Part shown: one piece after another, positions 24,270 through 60,771 of the stretch
Layout: each line of letters starts with the position of its first letter
How positions within the stretch are numbered: position 1 is the first letter of the stretch
Assembly (NCBI GenBank): GCA_965224195.1
Contig: OZ245040.1
Span: 736,001 to 800,000 of the forward strand
Length of the DNA: 64,000 nucleotides
Reading direction: 5' to 3'
Origin: Nitrosopumilus sp.
Lineage (GTDB): Archaea; Thermoproteota; Nitrososphaeria; Nitrososphaerales; Nitrosopumilaceae
Program-made: the position numbers and the translations under genes
The notes under the pieces: generated by a model
Databases searched by the model: none
What the model was told of the DNA's origin: nothing
What the model saw: the letters and a program-made list of their open reading frames with translations, nothing else

Positions 24270-25982
24270 ATGACTCTAAATATTCCAAGAAAAACATATG
24301 TTGATTTGTTTGGCCCTACAGTTGGAGATAGAATTCGTCTTGCAGATACTGATTTGATTATAGAAATTGAAAAAGACTTGAGCAAATACGGTGATGAGGT
24401 TGTATTTGGAGGAGGAAAGAGCATACGAGATGGACAGGGACAAGCAAGTGGAGTGTCTAGATCAGAATCACTTGATCTTGTAATTACAAATGCAATTGTA
24501 ATTGATCCTATTTTTGGAATTGTTAAAGCTGACATTGGAGTAAAACATGGAAAAATTGTTGGTATAGGAAATGCAGGTAATCCTGATATCATGGATGATG
24601 TTGATATGATAATATCTTCTAACACTGAGATAATTGCAGGAGAACATACAATTTGTACCCCTGGAACAGTTGATTCACACATTCATTTTATTTCTCCTCA
24701 ACAAGCCATACATGCAATTTGTAATGGTACCACTACAATGATTGGCGGTGGAACTGGCCCAGCTGATGGAACAAATGCAACTACATGTACACCAGGTAAG
24801 TGGAACATACACAGAATGATTGAATCAGTTGATGAATTACCATTGAACTTTGGATTTCTTGCAAAAGGAAATGATTCATGTGAAGTTGCATTACTTGAAC
24901 AAATTGAAGCAGGAGCTTGTGGTTTGAAATTACACGAAGATTGGGGGTCTACTCCCGCAACAATTAACTCTGCCTTGAATGTTGCAGACAAAACTGACAC
25001 TCAAGTTGCAATACATACAGATACTCTAAATGAATGTGGATTTGTTGATGATACCATTGAAGCAATTAATGGACGAACAATTCACACTTACCATACTGAA
25101 GGAGCTGGAGGAGGACATGCTCCAGATATAATGAAAATTGCTGGTGAGAAAAACATACTTCCCTCATCTACAAATCCTACAAGACCTTTTACAGTAAATA
25201 CATTAGCAGAACATCTTGACATGATGATGGTATGTCATCACCTAAACCCATCAGTACCTGAAGATGTATCCTTTGCAATGTCCAGAATTAGAGGAGAGAC
25301 AATTGCAGCAGAAGATGTACTACATGATATTGGAGTTTTGAGTATGATGTCTTCAGACAGTCAAGCTATGGGAAGAGTGGGAGAAGTCACAACTAGGAAT
25401 TGGCAGACAGCCGATAAAATGAAAAAGATGACTGGTAGTCTCCCAGAGGATAATACTCAAAATGATAATTTTAGAATAAAGAGATATCTTGCTAAAATTA
25501 CAATTAATCCAGCCATTACTCATGGAGTTTCAGATTATGTAGGCTCATTACAGCCTGGAAGATTAGCAGACATTGTAATTTGGTCTCCTAAATTCTTTGG
25601 AGTTAAACCAAAAATGATCATAAAAGGTGGTTTTATTGCATACTCACTCATGGGAGATCCTAATGCTTCAATTCCAACTACGGAACCCGTATTGTATCGT
25701 CCTATGTTTGGAGCCCTTGGCCAAACAAAATATTCCACTTCTGTAACATTCACATCTCAACTGGCATTAGACAAGGGTATTGAATCTGAAATCAATTCAA
25801 AAAAGAATTTAGTTCCTGTGAAGAACTGTCGTTTTATTGGAAAAAAAGATATGCTATACAATGATCGTACACCAAACATCGAGGTTAATTCTGAGACATA
25901 TGAAGTAAAAGTTGATGGAAAACTTGCAACTGTAGATCCTGCAGATAAAGTTTCAATTGCTAGGCTTTACAATTTATTTTAA
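24270..25982 (+). CDS. ureC: urease subunit alpha
   Basis: [37 protein letters not shown]. Confidence 0.98.
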
Positions 25983-50472: not shown

Positions 50473-50815
50473 AATTTTTTTAAAAACAATTTAATTTGTA
50501 ATCCTGTTCTCATTCTATAGACTTGTAGTAGTAACATAGAAAAATGTGCACTGTTAAGTAATCATTGAATAAAATTATGGTAATGGCTCATGTCCTCTTT
50601 TATATCCTGAAAATTTACGATATTCGTAATCAGTCAGTGGTGTTTGACATCCACATTTACAAAATATTTTCATGATTTTGATAAATTGCACACATACAAA
50701 AAGTTTAGGAAACTAGGGTTCTGTGAAGTTATAGGCACCTGAAATATGGATCTTCTTCAAATTGAATTTTAGGCATGAAGTTTTTTATCAACTCAAATAG
50801 TAGTCATTAGCGTTT

Positions 50816-51373
50816 TTGTTTATGGGTAAAAAAGAGTTACAAGAAAGAGACATTTGGCAAGATAGAAGTGGTGTAAGAGGGGAAGTTGCAGAAGCTAAAT
50901 TTGAGATAGTTTTTCTAAGAGAATTTGAAAAATTAAATTATGATGTAAGAAAAAAACCAAAAGAACTTCAAGATATTTATTCAAAGGAACCAAAACATGG
51001 AGTAGTTATCGATTATGCAATAACCAATACAGACACCAAAAAAACACTATACGTGGAAATCAAAAGACAGGATGGCTATGTTCCGGGGGAAACTGAACCT
51101 AATGCAGGTAGAGGAAATGCACATGAAAGATCATGTAAGTATTTTACACCCGGATTACTGAAAATCATGAGAAAATTTGGAAATTTAGGCGATGATGTAC
51201 TTCCTTTTTGGGTTGTATATCAAGGTCGTATTGCACGTGATAAAAAACGAACTAACGAAATAACATATTGGTTTGATAATTATAAACCACATTTTTTCTT
51301 GTGGAAAAATCAATCAAATGCAAAACCACTAGTCAACCATTTTAACAATAATTTGAAATCCCTCTTAGATTAG
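50816..51373 (+). CDS. MunI-family type II restriction endonuclease
   Basis: EIKRQDG...AGRGNAHERSCK.FTPGLLK, LPFWVV..G.I.RD.KR..EIT.W as in R.MunI. Confidence 0.88.
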   Translation: MFMGKKELQERDIWQDRSGVRGEVAEAKFEIVFLREFEKLNYDVRKKPKELQDIYSKEPKHGVVIDYAITNTDTKKTLYVEIKRQDGYVPGETEPNAGRGNAHERSCKYFTPGLLKIMRKFGNLGDDVLPFWVVYQGRIARDKKRTNEITYWFDNYKPHFFLWKNQSNAKPLVNHFNNNLKSLLD

Positions 51374-52023
51374 GCATTATTCATTATTACATCTAATCCC
51401 CATGAAGCCCAACCTCTAGCTCTCTTTCGTGCAAATAGCTCTATTCTTTTTTGTTCAGGGAACATCTTCTCTATTCCTTGCATGACTTCTATTGGTTTTT
51501 CACTATGTCCTTTTCTTGGAGTTTTTACTAGCTGTTTTACATTCCTTGCCCCTCTTGGATTTGGTATTCTACCGTGTTTAAATAACAAACATAGTTCGCA
51601 ATTTGAGAGGGTGTATTTTCCGGGATTATGATTCATCTTATCCCATACAAAAGCCACTGTTCTATACTTAAAACCCCATGCCTTGCCTAATTCTATGGCT
51701 TGTGATAAGTGAGGGTTTGTAGTCCACATGAACAATAAACAATCATCAGCTACTATTCCATCTATGGGAATATCTGACATTTCACTAGTCTTCATAGTAG
51801 GATATTTGAAACTAGCAGTGCTAATGTAGAGGCTTTTTGATGTATCGTATTGTAATTTCTTATTATAATCCCAAGGTGGATCAGCATAGATTATATCAAA
51901 TTTCTTATTTGGTAATTTTGGGTATGCCATTTCATTTGATAATGGATTGTGTTTTGTTCGTCTCTTAACATCTTCGTTGTAGATTGAATACCCACTACGC
52001 TTTTTTGTTAATTGTTTACTCAT
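51370..52023 (-). CDS. MT-A70 family adenine methyltransferase (M.MunI-like)
   Basis: IYADPPW, LFMW, FVWDK, HSEKP, IELFAR. Confidence 0.9.
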   Translation of the reverse strand: MSKQLTKKRSGYSIYNEDVKRRTKHNPLSNEMAYPKLPNKKFDIIYADPPWDYNKKLQYDTSKSLYISTASFKYPTMKTSEMSDIPIDGIVADDCLLFMWTTNPHLSQAIELGKAWGFKYRTVAFVWDKMNHNPGKYTLSNCELCLLFKHGRIPNPRGARNVKQLVKTPRKGHSEKPIEVMQGIEKMFPEQKRIELFARKRARGWASWGLDVIMNNA

Positions 52024-52199
52024 TTTGAATTTCTTCCTTCTATTGTAATTTTACCTTTTTTCCTGATCTCAAATTCAATTCTTTCTGGATTATCTAACTC
52101 TTCTAAAACGGGTTTGGGAATAACAGCAAAACATCCTCTTCGTTCATTATAATCTAATTTAACAGAAAACTTTGTTATGTCTTTTTTCCACTGAGCCAT
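52020..52199 (-). CDS. small AbrB/MazE-like regulator (59 aa)
   Basis: MAQWKKDITKFSVKL...AVIPKPVLEELD...IEFEI; ATGA overlap with the MTase start. Confidence 0.65.
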   Translation of the reverse strand: MAQWKKDITKFSVKLDYNERRGCFAVIPKPVLEELDNPERIEFEIRKKGKITIEGRNSK

Positions 52200-52236
52200 A
52201 CACTAAATTATTTTATGCCATACTTAAAACTTTTCT

Positions 52237-52277
52237 CGATCCTCGAGGATCGTAATATTGATATAATCCTCGAGGAT
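52237..52277. promoter_or_regulatory. two ATCCTCGAGGAT palindromes in divergent promoter
   Basis: 16-bp perfect palindrome at 52237-52252 and a 12-bp copy at 52266-52277. Confidence 0.65.
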
Positions 52278-52288
52278 AATATAATTAC

Positions 52289-53423
52289 ATGAATGCAAGA
52301 AAACAACGAGCTCAAATTATGATGGAAACTAAAGGTCATTGTTCACAGATTGACCAGAACTCCTTTAGAGTTAGATCTCAGTCAAATCCAAATAATTTCT
52401 ATATTGTATCAAAAACAGAAAACGGATTAAAATGTCAATGTAAGGATCATAATTGTAGGAAATCTGACTGCAAGCATATCAAGATAGTTTTAGAGATTAT
52501 CAAAAATAACAATTGTCGTAGAGACAATACATTTAGAATTATGGAACGCTCTAAACTAAAACTATGCAAATTCTGTGATTCAGGCAAAATTATCAAAAAA
52601 GGAATCAAGAAAAATAAATCAGGTAATCTTCAAAAATTCAAATGTAAAGATTGTAAAAGAGGATTCACTGCAAATTTTGGTTTTGAGAAAATGAGACATA
52701 AACCAGTTCTAATCACTAGAGCATTGCAGATGTATTATTCAGGAATGTCAGTTAGAGACATTGCAGACTGCTTTGAGCAAGAAGAAATAGAAATATCATA
52801 TAGGGCAGTTTACGACTGGGTTAAAAAAATACTCCAGAATGACACACAATTATCTAAAGGGGATTGTACCAAGGGTATCAGAAACATGGAGAACAGATGA
52901 AATTTTTATGAAAATTAGTGGTGAGCAGAAGCTACAATATTCAATGCTTGATCATGAGACCCGATTCATGATTACTCAATATATGGCAAACACAAAAGGC
53001 ACTGAAAACGTTACACCAATGTTTAGAGAAGCCATGATGATTACAGATAAGATACCAACAACATTAATTTCTGATGGTGCTCCTAATTTCCATAAGGCAT
53101 GGAAAGAGAATTACAAGGCAAAGAATTTTCTTTGGAAAGATACTGAACATATACGTCACATTCACATGAAGGGTGATAAAAATAACAACAGAATGGAGAG
53201 GTTAAACGGAACCATAAGAGACAGGGAAGTTTCATACAGAGGGATAAAAAAGATGAACAGTCCATTATTTGACGGATTCCAAATTTACTATAATTTCTCA
53301 AAAAAACACGGTGGAATTGGTAATAAGACACCAGCTGAGATGGCAAAGATAGAAGTAGACGGTGCTAACAAATGGAAGACCATAATTCAAAATGCCAGTC
53401 TCTACAGGGAAAATTCAATTTGA
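52289..53423 (+). pseudogene. IS6-family transposase (SWIM finger, Zn ribbon, HTH, DDE) split by an extra A in an A7 run
   Basis: CQCKD...CKHI, CKFC/CKDC, GMSVRDI, WRTDE, SDGA, NNRMERLN; one fewer A at 52823-29 restores VKKYSRM. Confidence 0.88.
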
Positions 53424-53601
53424 AGAAGATCCATATTTCAGGTGCCTATAACTTCACAGAACCTTGATTTTATCTTCCTTTTTATTTGCATGTGTTGTTA
53501 TATTTATGATCGTTACGCCTTATGATCATTATGTCCCATCAAAATCTGATGATTCTCTGACCCATTCTGAATAGCTTGAAGCTATTGATTTTAAACTATA
53601 A

Positions 53602-54117: not shown

Positions 54118-54370
54118 TGAACATTTATAATGATGTTAAGTTATAATGTTTTTTACAAATATGTTTCAAAAAAGAATACAATTAAACTATTTGACCTATA
54201 TTGCACATTGTCTCAAGATGCAGAATTAGAACATATGCTTCATCTCAAACATAGAATAAGGGGTAGTTTATTCAGTTTAAAAAAAAGTGGTAGAATTAAA
54301 CGAGTATCTGATGCAACATACAAAATTTTAGACTGAAATTCAATCTAAGCTCCCAAAGATGTTACAGAAT

Positions 54371-54606
54371 CCTTTAAAGCAAGATTGAAACATGCCGCCA
54401 TATGCAGGTCAATCATGCAAATATTCCGTATTGTTGTTACGGCCCCATTGAAGCAAAATATTGAAGCTAGAGCAGACAGGCAAGCAAGCAAACATGCATG
54501 CTCATAATTTCCTCACCTCCTGGTGAGGCCGCCCCATTAAAACAAAATAGAAGACGGAGCTTTTGCAAAAGAAAGCCAGTTTGAATCGAACTTTCATAGG
54601 ATAAAC
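54371..54606 (+). repeat. cassette A copy 1: array of four dissimilar CRISPR-repeat-like units
   Basis: Units end GATTGAAAC (54391), GGCCCCATTGAAGC (54454) and CCCCATTAAAAC (54543), plus GTTTGAATCGAACTTTCATAGGATAAAC (54579-54606); near-identical copy at 57507-57732. Confidence 0.7.
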
Positions 54607-54659
54607 AACTGCTGATCCCAAAAATTCAGTCAGATTTCAGGTGTGGCAAACAATATCCC

Positions 54660-57194
54660 ATGGCAACGAATCTTAAAATAGCAAGTTCCGAAACCTACCG
54701 TGACTTGGATTCTGATGCTCTTGAAGACATAGAGGAACTCATCAGGCTTGGCATGGGCGACACGCAAAGGCTCAATCATATGAAATCAATGCTCCAAAAG
54801 GGCAGGGTCCTGTACAATTCAGACAGAGCATACGTAGAGAAGCTGAAAAAGTTTCTGGAAGATGACAATGACAGCATCGATGACCAGCCACCAAAAGCAG
54901 GATTACAAGCTCCTGATACGCCATCGCCACCTGAAACAGACACCGTGCCACCATCAACCATTGAAACAGCTGCCAATAGTGCAAAAGACAACGACAAGAT
55001 CGTCCTCATGGTAAACCAATCACCCGGGTCAAGTGCTGCCTGGTATCTCTTGCCATTATTTTTTTCTATAATAGGCGGTGCCATATCTTACATGTGTATC
55101 AAAAGAGAGGATCCTACAAGGGCCCGCAGGACGCTCATACTTGGTGTCTGCCTGTTTGCAGTGCAAGCGTGCATGATTATAGGAATTTTCCTGATTGCCT
55201 ATGAGGACACAGGCGTACCGACAACTGACATGTCAGACAATCAGATAAGAAAGGATGCCGTGACCATCCCATACGATTCCCTGATGGATGAAAGCCACCT
55301 GTACGAGGGAAAGGCAGTATATTACAAGGGCAGGGTGCTGCAGGCATTTGACAATTTCTTTGGTTCGTATACAATGAGGATGAACATATTAAACAATGAC
55401 ACATTATTCGAGTCCGATAGCATTATGCTCAACTTTGAGCCAAGCACTGATGAGGAGAAACAGTGGGTTGAGAACATCAGGAGAAACCCAGACATATTTG
55501 GGTTAGACTCTCATGATGCTCAGATATGGGGAATATATCGCGGATTTATTGAATACGAGACCCTTTTCGGAGGTATCAATACAATACCTGAAGTTGATGT
55601 GCATATGCTGGAGATCAACATGCCGGATCCTAAAACTGAAGAGATAGCGAAAGACAGGATGCTTGTACTACCTGGAATTGATCCTGGTACTGATACTCCA
55701 GAACTTACTGTAACTGGAACACCTGCAGATAATTTCCCCGATGAACAACGTTCTCAATTTTGTGGTTCAAGTGATGCAAAGTCTACAGATTTTGTTCAAG
55801 AATTTTCAATTCCAACCTTGTGTACAAATCCTCTTGCAATTGTAACTGATTATGATGGAAACGTATGGTTTGCTGAAACTAATACTGGTAAAATTACTAA
55901 ATTTGATCCTGCTTCTGAAACATTCACTGAATATGAAAATTCATTGTGGCCTCCAGGTGGACGTTCAATGATTTGGGGAATGGATTATGCGCCCGATGGT
56001 TCTATATGGTTTACTGACGAATCCTATGATTCCATATGGAAATTCTCAACTATTGATGAGACCTATGATAGATTATCATATCCTTCTGAAGGAGATTCTT
56101 TACCTCAAAAACTTCTAGTTGATGGTTCTCAAATAATAATAAATGATTTTACTGGAAACAAACTCACATTTTTAGATCCTAATCAATCTGGTGAGGAAGT
56201 AAATTATCTTAGTATTCCATCCCCTACTGATGACTCTGTAACTGCAGACTTTGCAGTGGATGCAAACGATAATGTCTGGTACACTAATTGGTTATATCAG
56301 CAAGGAGGAGTTTTAGTAAAATTTGATCAAAATGATTATCTTAATTCTGTTGCAAATTCCGGAGAGCAATATCTTCCATTAATTGACTTTATCGAACTCT
56401 ATCGATTACCTATGACCCTTCTAACTCCTAACGGTATTACTGTGGCAGATGATGGTAATATTTGGATGGCTGATACAACATCTTCATCATTCTTTCATTT
56501 TGATCCGATAACTGAAAATTTTGTACAATATGTAACATCTGATCCTATATTGAGCACATATGGTAATCAGACAGGCGTTGTAAAAACTCCAATATCCAGA
56601 CCCTATTGGATTGAATCTGATGATCAAGGTAGAATTATTTTCAATGAACAAACTGCAAATAATATTTCTGTAATGGATCCAAAGTCTCAATCCCTTGTTG
56701 AATATCATGTTCCTTCAAAGAACCCCAACTGGGCTGATTGTGATCCTGGAACAGGCATGATGTTGGCTGATTGTGGTGTTGCTCAAATCTTTGATTTCAC
56801 TGTTGATGGTGAAAAAATCTGGTTTACTGAATGGGCAGAAAATAATATTGGGGTAGTTGATACATCTATTCCGTTACCTTTGGAAATACAACTAACATCA
56901 ACTTCTTTAACAACTACGACTGGAAATTCAAAGCCAATTGACTTTGTAGTGTCATCTTTATCTCAAAAAGACCTACTTGATGTTTCATTAATTTTATCTT
57001 CAACACATGATTTTTTAAATATTGGATTAGTTGATTCACCTGAAACATTCCAACTTGATTTTGATGCCCCTCGTCCGATCTCTCTTATCATTAATACTAC
57101 TGAAGATGCAATTCCTGGTACATACAAAGTTCTACTTGGTGCACAATTATCTGATGTTGCAATTAGCAAATATGTAACAGTGACAATAGAGTGA
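54660..57194 (+). CDS. chimeric protein: accessory membrane domain fused to a Vgb-lyase-like beta-propeller
   Basis: GC-richer N-terminal third with TM segments; AT-rich remainder with DGNVWFAE, DGSIWFT and GNIWMAD blades. Confidence 0.8.
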   Translation: MATNLKIASSETYRDLDSDALEDIEELIRLGMGDTQRLNHMKSMLQKGRVLYNSDRAYVEKLKKFLEDDNDSIDDQPPKAGLQAPDTPSPPETDTVPPSTIETAANSAKDNDKIVLMVNQSPGSSAAWYLLPLFFSIIGGAISYMCIKREDPTRARRTLILGVCLFAVQACMIIGIFLIAYEDTGVPTTDMSDNQIRKDAVTIPYDSLMDESHLYEGKAVYYKGRVLQAFDNFFGSYTMRMNILNNDTLFESDSIMLNFEPSTDEEKQWVENIRRNPDIFGLDSHDAQIWGIYRGFIEYETLFGGINTIPEVDVHMLEINMPDPKTEEIAKDRMLVLPGIDPGTDTPELTVTGTPADNFPDEQRSQFCGSSDAKSTDFVQEFSIPTLCTNPLAIVTDYDGNVWFAETNTGKITKFDPASETFTEYENSLWPPGGRSMIWGMDYAPDGSIWFTDESYDSIWKFSTIDETYDRLSYPSEGDSLPQKLLVDGSQIIINDFTGNKLTFLDPNQSGEEVNYLSIPSPTDDSVTADFAVDANDNVWYTNWLYQQGGVLVKFDQNDYLNSVANSGEQYLPLIDFIELYRLPMTLLTPNGITVADDGNIWMADTTSSSFFHFDPITENFVQYVTSDPILSTYGNQTGVVKTPISRPYWIESDDQGRIIFNEQTANNISVMDPKSQSLVEYHVPSKNPNWADCDPGTGMMLADCGVAQIFDFTVDGEKIWFTEWAENNIGVVDTSIPLPLEIQLTSTSLTTTTGNSKPIDFVVSSLSQKDLLDVSLILSSTHDFLNIGLVDSPETFQLDFDAPRPISLIINTTEDAIPGTYKVLLGAQLSDVAISKYVTVTIE

Positions 57195-57436
57195 TACCTG
57201 ACTTAGATTCTCAAATTGGGATTTCAGTTTACAATACTAAATTCCCTGGTATAGGGGGTAAAATTAGAATTGAACCTGAAGATTTCCAAGTTAGTGAATT
57301 AATTTCTGAAAAATCTAAAAAATCAATTAATGATCAACATGGATATGCTGTGTATAAATTAAAAAAGAAAAAAATTGACACCAATCATGCACTATCTGGG
57401 ATTTTTAGACAAAAAGGTATCGATTCAAAATTCTAG
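57191..57436 (+). pseudogene. truD: tRNA pseudouridine(13) synthase, 3'-truncated
   Basis: GIGGKIR..PEDFQVSE, KLKKK.IDT..A; only 81 aa before the IS-like end. Confidence 0.8.
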
Positions 57437-57506
57437 TCCATGCAAGGAAAATTCAATTTGAAGAAGATCCGTATCTTCATGTTATCCCTCGACGATTACG
57501 CAGACC

Positions 57507-57732
57507 CCTTTAAAGCAAGATTGAAACATGCCGCCATATGCAGGTCAATCATGCAAATATTTCGTATTGTTGTTACGGCCCCATTGAAGTAAAATATTGA
57601 AGCTAGAGCAGACAGGCAAGCAAGCAAACATGCATGCTCATAATTTCCTCACCTCCTGGTGAGGCCCCATTAAAACAAAATAGAAGACGGAGCTTTTGCA
57701 AAAGAAAGCCAGTTTGAATCGAACTTTCATAG
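57507..57732 (+). repeat. cassette A copy 2 (CRISPR-repeat-like array)
   Basis: Direct repeat of 54371-54599 with two substitutions and a 3-bp deletion; identity stops inside the last repeat unit. Confidence 0.85.
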
Positions 57733-57849: not shown

Positions 57850-57960
57850 TTATGCGTTGAAATAATGCTTGCACTTTGTGCATTGTAGCGGCCTTCCCAG
57901 TTCTTTTCTTGTGGCCATTTCATACTTGCATTTTTCACATTTTACTATTCTTATGCCCAT
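57850..57960 (-). CDS. 36-aa Zn-ribbon protein
   Basis: MGIRIVKCEKCKYEMATRKELGRPLQCTKCKHYFNA. Confidence 0.55.
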   Translation of the reverse strand: MGIRIVKCEKCKYEMATRKELGRPLQCTKCKHYFNA

Positions 57961-57983
57961 ATGATTCATTATTCAGCCCCATA

Positions 57984-58044
57984 TTTATTATTATACACGT
58001 GTAAAATAACAACACTTTTATTATTATACCCGTGTAAAATAACA
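57984..58044. promoter_or_regulatory. tandem 28-bp repeat with TACACGTGTA palindrome in divergent promoter
   Basis: TTTATTATTATAC(A/C)CGTGTAAAATAACA at 57984-58011 and 58017-58044. Confidence 0.7.
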
Positions 58045-58733
58045 TGAATCAAATACAAATTCAGCAGGAAAAAATAGTTTGCCACGATGAGAATGATTTT
58101 CGATATTACTCATTTGGTGATCAAGTATATGCATCAGCTACCACCTTGCTTGATGCTATGCAGGACAAGTCCTGGATGCAATATGTGAATCTGTCGCAAG
58201 AAGCATTAAATGACAGACGAAACAATGCGGCAAAAATTGGAACAGCAGTACATCAGGCTCTCTATGAAAAACTTTCAGGACTAAATGTGACAAAGCTGGG
58301 CCTGGTCGCATCAGCACACGTGTCACAGATTTCAGAACATCTCAATAAAATATCCGATGTTCGGGGACTGGAAAAAATTATGAAGTCTGACACCCTCAAG
58401 GTGGCCGGAACTGCAGATGTCATTGCAGCATATGATGGCGTCTCATCCGTCATTGATTTTAAGACGACACGAAAGCCTCGCTACGGCAAACGACGGGACG
58501 TGTGGTATCTGCAGGCTGCAATGTATGCCTTTATGCATTATGAGGAGACAAATTTTATTGCAAGTCAAATCGTCATCATAGAGTCATGTGAGGACGGAAA
58601 GTGCCGCATACACAAGGTAAAGTTTGCAGACTATGCAGATGAGATGCTTGAGACAATCCAAATGTTTTATTTGCCTGAATCAACTGACAACTCGCCAACA
58701 AAATATCTAGAGTTTTTGAGGAGGATAAACTAA
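58044..58733 (+). CDS. Cas4/RecB-like PD-(D/E)XK exonuclease (viral type)
   Basis: SATTLL, GTAVH, AGTADVI, VIDFKT, QAAMYA; lacks the four-Cys Fe-S staple of canonical Cas4. Confidence 0.82.
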   Translation: MNQIQIQQEKIVCHDENDFRYYSFGDQVYASATTLLDAMQDKSWMQYVNLSQEALNDRRNNAAKIGTAVHQALYEKLSGLNVTKLGLVASAHVSQISEHLNKISDVRGLEKIMKSDTLKVAGTADVIAAYDGVSSVIDFKTTRKPRYGKRRDVWYLQAAMYAFMHYEETNFIASQIVIIESCEDGKCRIHKVKFADYADEMLETIQMFYLPESTDNSPTKYLEFLRRIN

Positions 58734-59125
58734 TGTCTGTCATATCCATGGCCTCAAGGTTTGACAGCACCTGCAAGGTCTGCAGTGCACAAATCAGAGC
58801 CGGTGATGCCATATACAAAGTAAATGATCACTGGTGCAAAGACCAGAGCTGTGGCAAGTCTGACAACCAGGTTCACATGGAGAAGAGACGCATTGATCTT
58901 GAGAATAAAACTCCGCCTGGCGACTTGGATTCTGAGACGTGCAGTGTCATTGATGCAAATGCCGTGCTCTTGTACAAAATTAATCAGAGGGTCTTGCATG
59001 CCCTCAAGAAATATGACGAGGCCCCAAACCCTGCAATGGTTGGGCAGTTTACAAAAATCATATATGACAAGCTAGGGCCGTCATCCTCTTCTTCCTCTTC
59101 CTCTTCTTCCTCCTCCTCCTCCTGA
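58733..59125 (+). CDS. Zn-finger protein with poly-Ser tail
   Basis: SRFDSTCKVC..I..GD.I...HWC...C; TAATG overlap with the nuclease. Confidence 0.65.
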   Translation: MSVISMASRFDSTCKVCSAQIRAGDAIYKVNDHWCKDQSCGKSDNQVHMEKRRIDLENKTPPGDLDSETCSVIDANAVLLYKINQRVLHALKKYDEAPNPAMVGQFTKIIYDKLGPSSSSSSSSSSSSSS

Positions 59126-59254
59126 CAGGACCTTATGCCAAATTCTGCTGAGCATTTTGTAAATGCCTGGCATGAGATGCATCTGCAAGAATAGCGTGTG
59201 GCCGCGTCCAACGTTTTATTGTGGGGGGGCGTGTAACGGACTGAGCGTTCACTC

Positions 59255-59423
59255 ACTTGTCATTTGAAAGACTTTTATCTATTTTTTAGTTTGAGACATG
59301 TGTGGATGCACCACGTTTGAATCGAACCTTTATGGGATTAAAAAATATTAAGCATGTGTACACAGTGCATCCACTGCCTTCTTCACCCTACCTTTATGAT
59401 GTTCATACACCTTCGATTGAAGG
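59255..59423 (+). repeat. cassette B copy 1: promoter plus stem-enclosed solitary CRISPR-repeat-like unit
   Basis: GAAAGACTTTTATC (BRE/TATA-like); GTGGATGCAC...GTGCATCCAC inverted repeat around GTTTGAATCGAACCTTTATGGGATTAAAAA (59315-59344). Confidence 0.75.
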
Positions 59424-59538
59424 ATTTCCAAAATGCCTCAAAAACTCCCGATTACTTGACATGAAGAAAATTTTGATCTCATCTCCGGACTGCCTGACAG
59501 AACATAAATAAGTAAGGCATGCCAGTGTTGTTCAATAT

Positions 59539-60378
59539 ATGAAAAAGACAATAATCTTTGCAATAATATTTACAATAATAGCTGGGATCTCAGTTTTGGT
59601 ATTGGGATCCTTTGAAACATCTCATGTAGATACCATAGAGATGACGGGTGTGGATGCCATAGAGATGACAGATGCAGAAAAGATGTGGCTTGAGACAAGA
59701 CAAACCATAAGGGTGGCATATGATCCTGCCTGGTATCCGTTTGAGTACATGGACAAAGAGTCCGGCAAGATAGGGGGACTTTCAGGCAAGTACTTTGCAG
59801 AGATAGAATCATCTACAGGAGCAGACCTTGTTACAATAGAGATATCTGACTGGGCAGATGCATTAGAGTCAGTTAAAGACGGCAGGGCAGACATGTTGCT
59901 CATGGCAGCTGACACTGAGCAGAGAAGGGAGTTTTTGGGATTTACAGAACCGCACAGCAGAATATCCGTGGACATGATCACAGTTGGAACTCAGACACTT
60001 GACGTAAAAGATCTGGCAGAGCTCAGAGTTGCCACCGTAAGGGATTATGCAGTAGAGTCATGGCTTGATCAGAACAGGCCAGAGGTAATGTATGCATCAT
60101 TTGAAAATGCCGCTGCTGCACTAGATGCATTAGAGGCAAAGAGCATGGATGTCTTTCTTGAAAATGAGCACGTGGCATCAATTACAGCCAAAAAGGCAGG
60201 CATAAGCGGAGGAGTGTTTAATGCAGGCCCGTCAGGATACGAGTATGTTCTGTCCATAGGCTTTGCAAAAGAGTCCGGTGAGCTTGGCACCATACTGCAA
60301 AAGGCCATTGATGCAATTCCGCAAGATCAAAAAGCACAGATGCTCAAAGACGTACTGGCAGAGAACGACGGCATCTGA
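59539..60378 (+). CDS. family-3 extracellular solute-binding protein (BvgS/EvgS-type sensor domain)
   Basis: Signal anchor, EKMWL, DPAWYPFEY, GRADML, RREFLGFTEP, LQKAIDAI. Confidence 0.85.
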   Translation: MKKTIIFAIIFTIIAGISVLVLGSFETSHVDTIEMTGVDAIEMTDAEKMWLETRQTIRVAYDPAWYPFEYMDKESGKIGGLSGKYFAEIESSTGADLVTIEISDWADALESVKDGRADMLLMAADTEQRREFLGFTEPHSRISVDMITVGTQTLDVKDLAELRVATVRDYAVESWLDQNRPEVMYASFENAAAALDALEAKSMDVFLENEHVASITAKKAGISGGVFNAGPSGYEYVLSIGFAKESGELGTILQKAIDAIPQDQKAQMLKDVLAENDGI

Positions 60379-60463: not shown

Positions 60464-60637
60464 ACTTGTCCATTTTCAAAAGACTTTTATCTATTTTTTA
60501 GTTTGAGACATGTGTGGATGCACCACGTTTGAATCGAACTATATTATAGGATTAAAAAACATCAAGCATCTGTACACAGTGCATCCACTGCCTTCTTCAC
60601 CTTACCTTTATGATGTTCATACACCTTCGATTGAAGG
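60464..60637 (+). repeat. cassette B copy 2
   Basis: Direct repeat of 59255-59423; repeat variant GTTTGAATCGAACTATATTATAGGATTAAAAA at 60527-60558. Confidence 0.8.
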
Positions 60638-60771
60638 CTTTTAAAATTGATCATTTATTTTAACCAATTCTCAATCTTGATAATATTTAAAAAAATCATA
60701 ATTTACACAATATTGATTTGTATGGAAATTATAGAATAAACTCTTTTTAACTTAATCCATATTGCTCTAGT

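Follow-up and report, generated by a model that had tools for sequence, protein, structure and literature searches.

A chimeric cassette of CRISPR-type repeats of subtypes I-G and I-B on foreign DNA in a Nitrosopumilus genome, and its possible role as a crRNA decoy

A short non-coding cassette in the genome of a Nitrosopumilus species (assembly GCA_965224195.1, genome label G000) carries, in a row, units that resemble the repeats of CRISPR arrays. The stretch analysed here, called the window, is 64,000 nucleotides (nt) long and corresponds to C1:736001-800000, where C1 is contig OZ245040.1; coordinates without this prefix are positions within the window. The cassette is approximately 235 bp long and occurs in the window twice in direct orientation, at 54365-54599 and 57501-57732. 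Comparison with the arrays of the host gives good support to the view that it is a chimeric mini-array, composed of CRISPR-type repeats of two subtypes and situated on foreign DNA of a mobile type, in a host that runs the same two subtypes. The role of such an arrangement can be proposed with less confidence. The reading favoured here, tentatively, is that the cassette may be a mimic or decoy of CRISPR RNA (crRNA) borne by a mobile element, of the kind represented by RNA anti-CRISPRs (Racrs) or by mini-arrays. Almost the same likelihood attaches to its main rival, in which the cassette is a relic of foreign arrays and inert.

An earlier note on this DNA had described a duplicated non-coding cassette of about 230 bp, with four units separated by gaps of 29, 52 and 35 nt, and both the duplication and the layout hold. 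In a BLAST search against the whole genome the two window copies are 97% identical over 235 nt, while a repeat finder pairs 54365-54530 with 57501-57666 (98%) and 54531-54599 with 57664-57732 (100%), the two blocks being offset by a 3-nt indel. The common stretch begins 6 nt to the left of the start given in that note and ends at 54599 and 57732, respectively. The BLAST search also returned two further copies, both on the minus strand: copy 3 at C1:1512865-1513087 (94%) and the diverged copy 4 at C1:1626092-1626242 (82%). Copy 1 (54365-54606, plus strand) consists of unit 1 (54371-54391), a gap of 29 nt, the I-G-like unit 2 (54421-54454), a gap of 52 nt, unit 3 (54507-54543), which is an I-G-shaped variant with an extra CCG in its tail, a gap of 35 nt, and unit 4 (54579-54606), which resembles a 30-nt I-B repeat and is present in its full form, all of them on the plus strand. 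In copy 2 (57501-57732, plus strand) the corresponding units occupy 57507-57527, 57557-57590 (with two substitutions), 57643-57676 (the 34-nt form of unit 3, the same as in copy 4) and 57712-57732. The last of these comprises only the first 21 nt of unit 4; the final 7 nt occur in copy 1 alone, and other sequence stands in place of the 3' tag. Homology among copies 1-3 starts at the TTTAAA with which unit 1 begins, and gap 2 opens with a recurrence of the 8-nt sequence ATTGAAGC. Since the copies differ by indels of 1, 2, 3, 4 and 16 nt and share no open reading frame (ORF), the cassette is considered non-coding; on account of the indels of 1, 2, 4 and 16 nt and the missing shared ORF, a reading of it as a coding gene or as the interior of an insertion sequence (IS) was rejected.

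The same note had stated that no cas operon is present. This is correct for the window but not for the genome, where three CRISPR-Cas systems were found by a k-mer scan and direct reading, with neighbouring genes typed by NCBIfam; all three are located outside the window. Array 1 (C1:707205-713740, crRNA sense minus) has 90 repeats of 36 nt and adjoins a type I-G set comprised of Cas4g/Cas1g (E 6e-215), Cas3g (2e-209), Csb2, Csb1 and a Cas3-extension protein. This operon, at C1:714206-723057, is the nearest cas operon to the cassette; its Csb2 gene occupies C1:720317-721780 on the minus strand. Array 2 (C1:941990-946529, crRNA sense minus) has 69 repeats of 30 nt and is flanked by an I-B set, with Cas6, a Cas7/Csh2-like protein, Cas5b and Cas3 on one side and Cas4 and Cas1b on the other; the Cas6 gene occupies C1:940994-941743 on the minus strand. 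Array 3 (C1:1457181-1466783, crRNA sense plus) has 132 repeats of 37 nt and is preceded by an I-B-like set of Cas7/Csh2, Cas5b, Cas3, Cas1 and Cas4. The arrays are strikingly uniform (90/90, 68/69 and 132/132 identical repeats, respectively), the sole exception being the trailer repeat of the 69-repeat array. The host I-G repeat ends in GGCCCCATTGAAGC, and the host I-B repeat has the form GTTTGAATCGAAC...GGATTGAAAT.

Repeats of the I-G type are uncommon in the family. Their tail pattern is found in six of 301 family genomes including the host, with 131 copies in G291, 135 in G041, 36 in G014 and a few in G016 and G061. Because of this rarity, I-G mimics inside an I-G host would not be expected by chance. 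Within the family the stem of the I-G repeat varies and the tail is kept; a tiny array in G061, for example, with three to four repeats on the minus strand at approximately G061:C4 34300-34560 and one partial unit ahead of them, combines a different stem (CGCAAC/GTTGCG) with the usual GGCCCCATTGAAGC tail.

Resemblance of the cassette to the host repeats was assessed by local alignment. As a control, 4000 windows of 242 nt were drawn at random from this genome, and the higher score of the two strands was used. Unit 2 scored 35-55 against the host I-G repeat, a value reached by none of the 4000, and its 3' 20 nt are identical (20/20) to the 3' part of that repeat. Unit 4 has 22 of 24 nt in common with the 30-nt I-B repeat and scored 32-38 in copies 1-3, again above all 4000 windows, and 26 in copy 4, which five of the 4000 equalled. 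Both units match the host repeats in the crRNA sense only. At loose thresholds the Rfam model CRISPR-DR16 recognises unit 2 of copy 1 (54421-54454, plus strand) with 21.2 bits (E 0.3), which is below its cut-off of 35 bits, as are the 25-31.5 bits that it gives to the host I-G repeats themselves. Units 3 and 4 match no Rfam model at loose thresholds, copy 1 unit 2 being the only unit to give a match, and at gathering thresholds there is no match in the cassette region.

Unit 3 resembles the I-G repeat in shape. At -8.2 kcal/mol, the fold of the host repeat has 4 nt ahead of a 7-bp stem and a tail of 12 nt after it. The 34-nt form of unit 3, found in copies 2 and 4, has the same 4 nt/7-bp/12-nt register at -12.4 kcal/mol, and none of 300 shuffles folded as well. 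The sequence identity to the host repeat is little: the stem is wholly different (CCTCACC/GGTGAGG), and the tail reads CCCCATTAAAAC as against the host's CCCCATTGAAGC. Between copy 4 and the other copies unit 3 is identical at 34 of 34 positions, whereas the adjoining gap is identical at 28 of 35 (7/35 differ; Fisher p = 0.011). The unit 3 pattern had no match in 185,579 GTDB species genomes, and a looser pattern made of its 5' and 3' parts returned from these genomes no array, only four singletons in bacteria that are unrelated. Unit 3 has lost the G at position 4 of the 8-nt tag (ATTGAA to ATTAAA), and so have two solitary I-B-like units described below, while the natural I-G arrays examined all retain ATTGAAGC.

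For unit 1 the resemblance does not exceed chance. It had been proposed as a mimic of a 37-nt repeat, and its score against the 37-nt host repeat was equalled by 124 of the 4000 windows for copy 1 and by 774 of the 4000 for copies 2 and 3. The overlap is essentially the 8-mer ATTGAAAC. With unit 1 removed by the random-window control, the idea that the cassette mimics all three host arrays was dropped. A possible solitary unit of the 37-nt class was seen elsewhere, outside the window at C1:1663757-1663786; it matches the last 15 nt of the 37-nt repeat exactly (E 0.039 genome-wide), there is some similarity upstream, and it lies between genes next to a small cysteine-rich ORF on the reverse strand.

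The proposal of several different repeat families therefore stands in a reduced form. The cassette contains more than one family, but only two subtypes are represented, I-G in two variants and the 30-nt type of I-B. Both had been guessed correctly, the former by its GGCCCCATTGAAGC end, and units 2, 3 and 4 are indeed CRISPR-repeat look-alikes, all in crRNA sense and not copies of one homogeneous repeat. Units 2 and 3 have in common only an ATTTCC-like start at the 5' end and a CCCCATT..A..C tail, and unit 4 belongs to another class. By the usual definition of an array, at least three near-identical direct repeats, the cassette is not one, as the units differ; there is also no leader with adjoining cas genes, the nearest cas operon being approximately 67 kb from copy 1.

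Copy 4 is the most complete copy, and its spacing is close to that of a CRISPR array. It begins with a repeat whose 5' half is decayed and whose 3' half is intact, and a unique 39-nt sequence separates this from an I-G repeat of the full 36 nt. Unit 3 follows after 36 nt, and an I-B-like unit after a further 35 nt. Compared with the common family repeat, the full I-G repeat agrees at 34 of 36 positions, and compared with the host repeat at 32 of 35. The intervals of 39, 36 and 35 nt compare with host spacers of mostly 35-38 nt, and with 29, 52 and 35 nt in the window copies. The 52 nt of gap 2 correspond to the 36-nt gap of copy 4 enlarged by a low-complexity expansion of the GCAA type (the 16-nt indel). 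Gaps 2 and 3 are common to all copies and have not been renewed.

The DNA that carries the cassette appears to be foreign. The cassette and its right flanks have a GC content of 42-47%, compared with 33.6% for the genome. Approximately 300 nt downstream of copies 2, 3 and 4, with a reverse-strand ORF in between, lies a GC-rich two-gene module. In the window it occupies 58044-59125 on the plus strand and encodes a virus-type PD-(D/E)XK exonuclease of 229 aa (58044-58733) and a protein of 130 aa (58733-59125); across the copies the two proteins measure 229-264 and 115-130 aa. The exonuclease matches PHROG 298 (E 1e-32), PF12705 (E 1e-4) and MGME1 chains (E 8e-9). The sequence that connects cassette and exonuclease is unrelated between copies 2 and 3 on the one hand and copy 4 on the other. 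Eight close copies or fragments of the module, with 79-100% identity, are present in the host genome, which is unique in this respect among the 301 family genomes searched. In 101 of the 300 others (a tally that includes G260, flagged as unpublished) there is a match, solely to a paralog with 27-40% identity, which the host also has at C1:1309952. Most genomes of the genus have a single exonuclease paralog of approximately 35% identity, and the module copy in the window ends in a poly-serine run at about 59077-59128. The mobile island of the earlier note is supported in so far as the DNA looks foreign, is GC-rich and multi-copy, and has a PHROG-type exonuclease. No integrase lies beside any copy, the nearest PF00589 match being approximately 22 kb away and below the family cut-off, and neither an intact element nor structural genes were identified around the cassette.

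The same GC-rich DNA holds a second module of approximately 185 bp, present at 59255-59435 and 60464-60649 (both plus strand, 91% identical). Each copy contains a solitary repeat resembling the 30-nt I-B type, at 59315-59344 and 60527-60559, respectively, enclosed by a 10-bp inverted repeat. With z = -3.07, the fold of the copy at 60464-60649 is a good one. Between the two copies lies an SBP_bac_3 gene (59539-60378), of which a 90% copy exists at C1:922080-923105. In a public DNA run (X3), a contig joins 59266 to 60479 and lacks the SBP_bac_3 gene.

If the cassette is a decoy, its transcription would start at the left end of the cassette itself, where unit 1 offers, in its TTTAAA, a possible archaeal TATA box. 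The units made of a hairpin and a tail would be offered to the host I-G Csb2, a Cas5-Cas6 fusion, and the unit of the 30-nt type to the I-B Cas6. The products would lack a useful guide and would in part carry off-consensus 5' tags, ATTAAAAC or GGATAAAC as against ATTGAAGC or ATTGAAAT. They would compete with genuine crRNAs and tie up Cas proteins, which would amount to a Racr-like anti-CRISPR effect against two subtypes at once. Four observations cause this reading to be favoured: an ordinary array would not easily decay into three successive repeat classes; the I-G-shaped hairpin of unit 3 is compensated and well conserved, and no array of it exists in the 185,579 species genomes; the same foreign DNA bears further solitary I-B mimics; and the off-consensus tags recur. 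Because the copies are partly decayed, the reading may describe what the element evolved for rather than the present role of every copy.

Racrs are among the closest known parallels. As described by Camara-Wilpert et al. 2023 (PMC10651486), they are repeat mimics that viruses and plasmids encode in the form of solitary units, in many cases with a promoter just upstream; 83% of them match the subtype of the host, and one of them binds Cas6f and Cas7f, leading to an aberrant complex. The cassette is similar in that its repeat look-alikes are intergenic, lie on mobile-looking DNA unlinked to cas genes, have crRNA orientation, possibly have a promoter upstream and correspond to subtypes present in the host. 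This correspondence is found for units 2 and 4; unit 3 has the shape of an I-G repeat, and unit 1 does not qualify. The setting differs, with a thaumarchaeon as host, I-G and I-B as the subtypes concerned, and no known anti-CRISPR (acr) gene recognised alongside.

Several points weigh against a decoy. Racrs are solitary by definition, whereas the cassette has three units of two subtypes at CRISPR spacing. The rule of SRUFinder (PMC10651486) calls a repeat unit solitary if no other full or partial repeat lies within about 100 bp; the units at 59315 and 60527 would pass, but the cassette units, 29-52 nt apart, fail. The 5-bp stem of unit 2 is no better than shuffled sequence (88 of 300 shuffles as good), and the fold of the whole cassette is unremarkable (z = -1.27 on the plus and -0.06 on the minus strand). 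Taken together, units are only marginally better conserved than gaps between copy 4 and the others (69/74 versus 59/71 identical, p = 0.07). There are indels in the tail of unit 3 (3 nt added in copy 1, 2 nt in copy 3) and of unit 2 (1 nt added in copy 3), substitutions in the stem and last base of unit 2 in copy 2, and the 3' tag of unit 4 is gone in copies 2 and 3. The G-to-A loss in the tag is also the expected direction of decay and is thus weak on its own. Nothing promoter-like is conserved beyond the TTTAAA, the left flanks of copies 1-3 being unrelated. Full exonuclease modules at C1:282559 and C1:1272512 have no cassette upstream, and the surroundings of the window copies are a junk-rich mosaic with a chimeric ORF, a truD fragment and an IS remnant. 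Finally, no relatives of the cassette were found elsewhere, so that conservation across hosts cannot be judged: the 300 other family genomes yielded scraps only (E 6.6e-6 or worse), 50,697 phage and 72,556 plasmid records only matches of E 0.02-0.9 in unrelated bacteria, and exact searches found neither a 28-mer of it in IMG/VR nor a 21-mer in JGI metagenomes.

A bolder version of the decoy reading holds that the cassette is a polyvalent RNA anti-CRISPR, in which one short transcript would mimic both I-G and I-B repeats and tie up the processing and loading proteins of both systems, the loss of the tag G making the products dead-end. On present comparisons this is rather unlikely. If true, this would make the cassette the first decoy array for more than one subtype, and also the first RNA anti-CRISPR of Thaumarchaeota. 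Full-text searches of the literature brought up no account of an array in which mimics of two subtypes are mixed, which agrees with the published statement on Cracr arrays given below, while the supplementary tables of solitary repeat units (SRUs) that accompany the Racr work, outside that search, might contain clusters.

The main rival to the decoy is that the cassette is left over from one foreign array or from several, as when an orphan I-G array on a mobile element had its end fused by recombination to a repeat of I-B type. It would have been carried along and duplicated with the mobile DNA beside it, and neither now nor in the past would it have had a function of its own. Two of the three homology breakpoints fall inside units, one in unit 2 (copy 4 versus copies 1-3) and one in unit 4 after base 21 (copies 1 and 4 versus copies 2 and 3). 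Recombination between repeats would yield breakpoints at such positions. In addition, the 39-nt spacer unique to copy 4 stands between two I-G repeats as it might in part of a real array, the tails of the units have suffered indels with loss of the unit 4 tag, and IS elements, a duplicate of a host segment and a pseudogene make the region a mosaic. Krupovic et al. 2019 (PMC6563490) describe integrated elements of Thaumarchaeota that bear long stand-alone arrays of 69-96 spacers, homogeneous, and with repeats identical to those of the host array. These belong to the same phylum and are likewise without cas genes, on integrated mobile DNA and related to the host array in their repeats, but the cassette has three to four heterogeneous units. 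A further case is a temperate phage that integrates into CRISPR repeats and can move repeat-spacer units on excision (10.1101/2020.10.09.333658). Degenerate array trailers are also comparable in having off-consensus repeats and old conserved spacers; however, a trailer is a decayed form of the same repeat, whereas the cassette adjoins no array, its unit 3 has a different and fully compensated stem, and its unit 4 is of another subtype.

Other observations speak against a relic. Ordinary arrays have one repeat, and three classes at CRISPR spacing would require several independent recombinations. The alternative stem of unit 3 is fully compensated and free of substitutions in every copy, next to a gap that differs at seven of 35 positions, and none of the 185,579 species genomes has an array of such repeats. 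The linkage to the exonuclease is kept in two arrangements with unrelated connecting sequence, and further solitary I-B-like repeats stand on the same foreign DNA. The relic is, on balance, a possible explanation that falls a little short of the decoy.

It could also be supposed that the intervals are functional guides, that is, that the cassette is a mini-array of spacers using the host Cas proteins against rival elements, or repressing cas or toxin promoters in the manner of Cracr and CreR. The spacers of copy 4 (39, 36 and 35 nt) have a suitable length next to the host's, mostly 35-38 nt, and precedents exist. Mini-arrays of archaeal viruses (Medvedeva et al. 2019, PMC6858448, as summarised in PMC11656645) have repeats identical to those of the host and one or two spacers against related viruses. 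The cassette resembles them as a short array with one to three intervals of spacer length, on mobile-looking DNA, without cas genes and presumably dependent on the host Cas proteins. The repeats of the cassette differ, however, from each other and from those of the host (at best 20 identical nt of 36 for unit 2, and 32/35 for the repeat of copy 4), and no target was found. Multiplexed viral crRNA-like arrays are known as well. According to 10.1101/2024.10.29.618823, Cracr RNAs encoded together in one array always address variants of the same type. The multiplexed repeat-like units on mobile elements and the proposed competition for Cas proteins are common to both, but the cassette mixes two subtypes, and Cracrs need a spacer that matches a cas or toxin promoter.

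No such match was found for the cassette. A search of the three cas loci, approximately 30 kb, with 11-nt seeds (position 6 left free) gave a single match, which lies inside a coding ORF and whose seed occurs 108 times genome-wide; a cas or toxin promoter with at least nine matches next to the protospacer-adjacent motif, as expected of Cracr, CreR or CreA, did not emerge from it. The regulatory version put forward earlier, in which the spacers match cas promoters, gained no support. Targets of other kinds were equally absent. The gaps gave only chance matches of 14-15 nt in the own genome and none among the phage and plasmid records, and a 24-mer of the copy 4 spacer is absent from IMG/VR; these negatives are weak, as the databases contain no relative of the element. 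The 288 host spacers had only chance matches of 15-24 nt in the array-masked own genome, and 297 spacers from the related I-G arrays of G291, G041 and G014 only one, of 18 nt, in the host genome. Moreover, gaps 2 and 3 are shared by all copies, gap 2 varying by the low-complexity 16-nt indel, and published mini-arrays have the repeats of their host. A guide-bearing array is for these comparisons improbable.

It is still more doubtful that the cassette is a recombination or attachment (att) site, with units as crossover points for foreign modules and window copies as leftover flanks. The two window copies do form direct repeats around an insert of 2.9 kb, unit 4 breaks cleanly after base 21 and continues to the right into one of two alternative partners, and the second module likewise forms direct repeats around a gene that is missing from the contig of run X3. 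However, no integrase adjoins any copy. The prophages that target CRISPR repeats (Varble et al.) offer no close model, as all copies lie far from the three host arrays, at least 67 kb from any of them, and integration into an array is thereby excluded. The junctions of the second module are at its edges and not in a repeat-like unit, and a 230-bp site of multiple units at CRISPR spacing would be unexpected. Weakest of all is the view that the cassette is a promoter with a structured 5' leader for downstream mobile-element genes, its CRISPR resemblance coincidental or historical: although it always lies upstream of GC-rich genes in the same orientation (54 nt before an ATG in copy 1) and its conserved stretch starts at TTTAAA, copies 2-4 have a reverse-strand ORF and approximately 300 nt before the exonuclease gene, and the match to I-G and I-B repeats goes far beyond chance, so that this view has very little to recommend it.

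Repeat mimics on mobile elements are a recently recognised means of disarming CRISPR, and the described cases are single units or arrays of one type. If the cassette is a decoy, mobile elements can stack RNA decoys against hosts that run several systems. Anti-CRISPR biology would gain marine ammonia oxidisers and type I-G as new ground, and the cassette would provide compact natural parts for titrating processing enzymes of the Csb2 and Cas6 type. If it is a relic, it still records a traffic of CRISPR pieces between elements and hosts in a family where I-G is rare.

The remaining features of the neighbourhood illustrate its mosaic nature. To the left of copy 1 lies an element of the IS6/IS240 family (50717-53463, plus strand), whose terminal inverted repeats (50717-50770 and 53410-53463) are 54 bp long and perfect. 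A frameshift is suggested by the transposase, which is read in two ORFs that overlap (52289-52900 and 52839-53423). Ends of related IS occur here and there in the genome, one of them as a remnant at 57423-57482. Directly downstream of copy 1 is a chimeric ORF of 844 aa (54660-57194, plus strand), in which the first approximately 330 codons are GC-rich and foreign. They are joined in frame to a host duplicate, as 55659-57429 is a 96.7% copy of C1:873163-874934, where a beta-propeller (Vgb_lyase/NHL) gene has its 3' part and truD starts. Between this ORF and copy 2, at 57191-57482 on the plus strand, are the truD fragment, with 81 codons (57191-57436, Pfam TruD E 1.7e-14), and the IS-end remnant just to the left of the cassette. 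The reverse-strand ORF between copy 2 and the exonuclease gene encodes a zinc-ribbon-like protein of 39 aa (57850-57969, minus strand), and analogous small reverse ORFs are present at copies 3 and 4.

Just upstream of copy 4, at C1:1626760-1627270 on the opposite strand, is a gene pair of 80 and 86 aa, which by eye look like a toxin-antitoxin pair of the RelE/ParE type. Past the end of the window, C1:799900-811200 is GC-rich (approximately 50%) and contains many diverged tandem and dispersed units of approximately 150-600 bp, which recur at a dozen other loci. The sole Rfam match in the window at curated thresholds is 5_ureB_sRNA (RF02514) at 24430-24713 on the minus strand, with 46.3 bits and an E-value of 5.5e-9.

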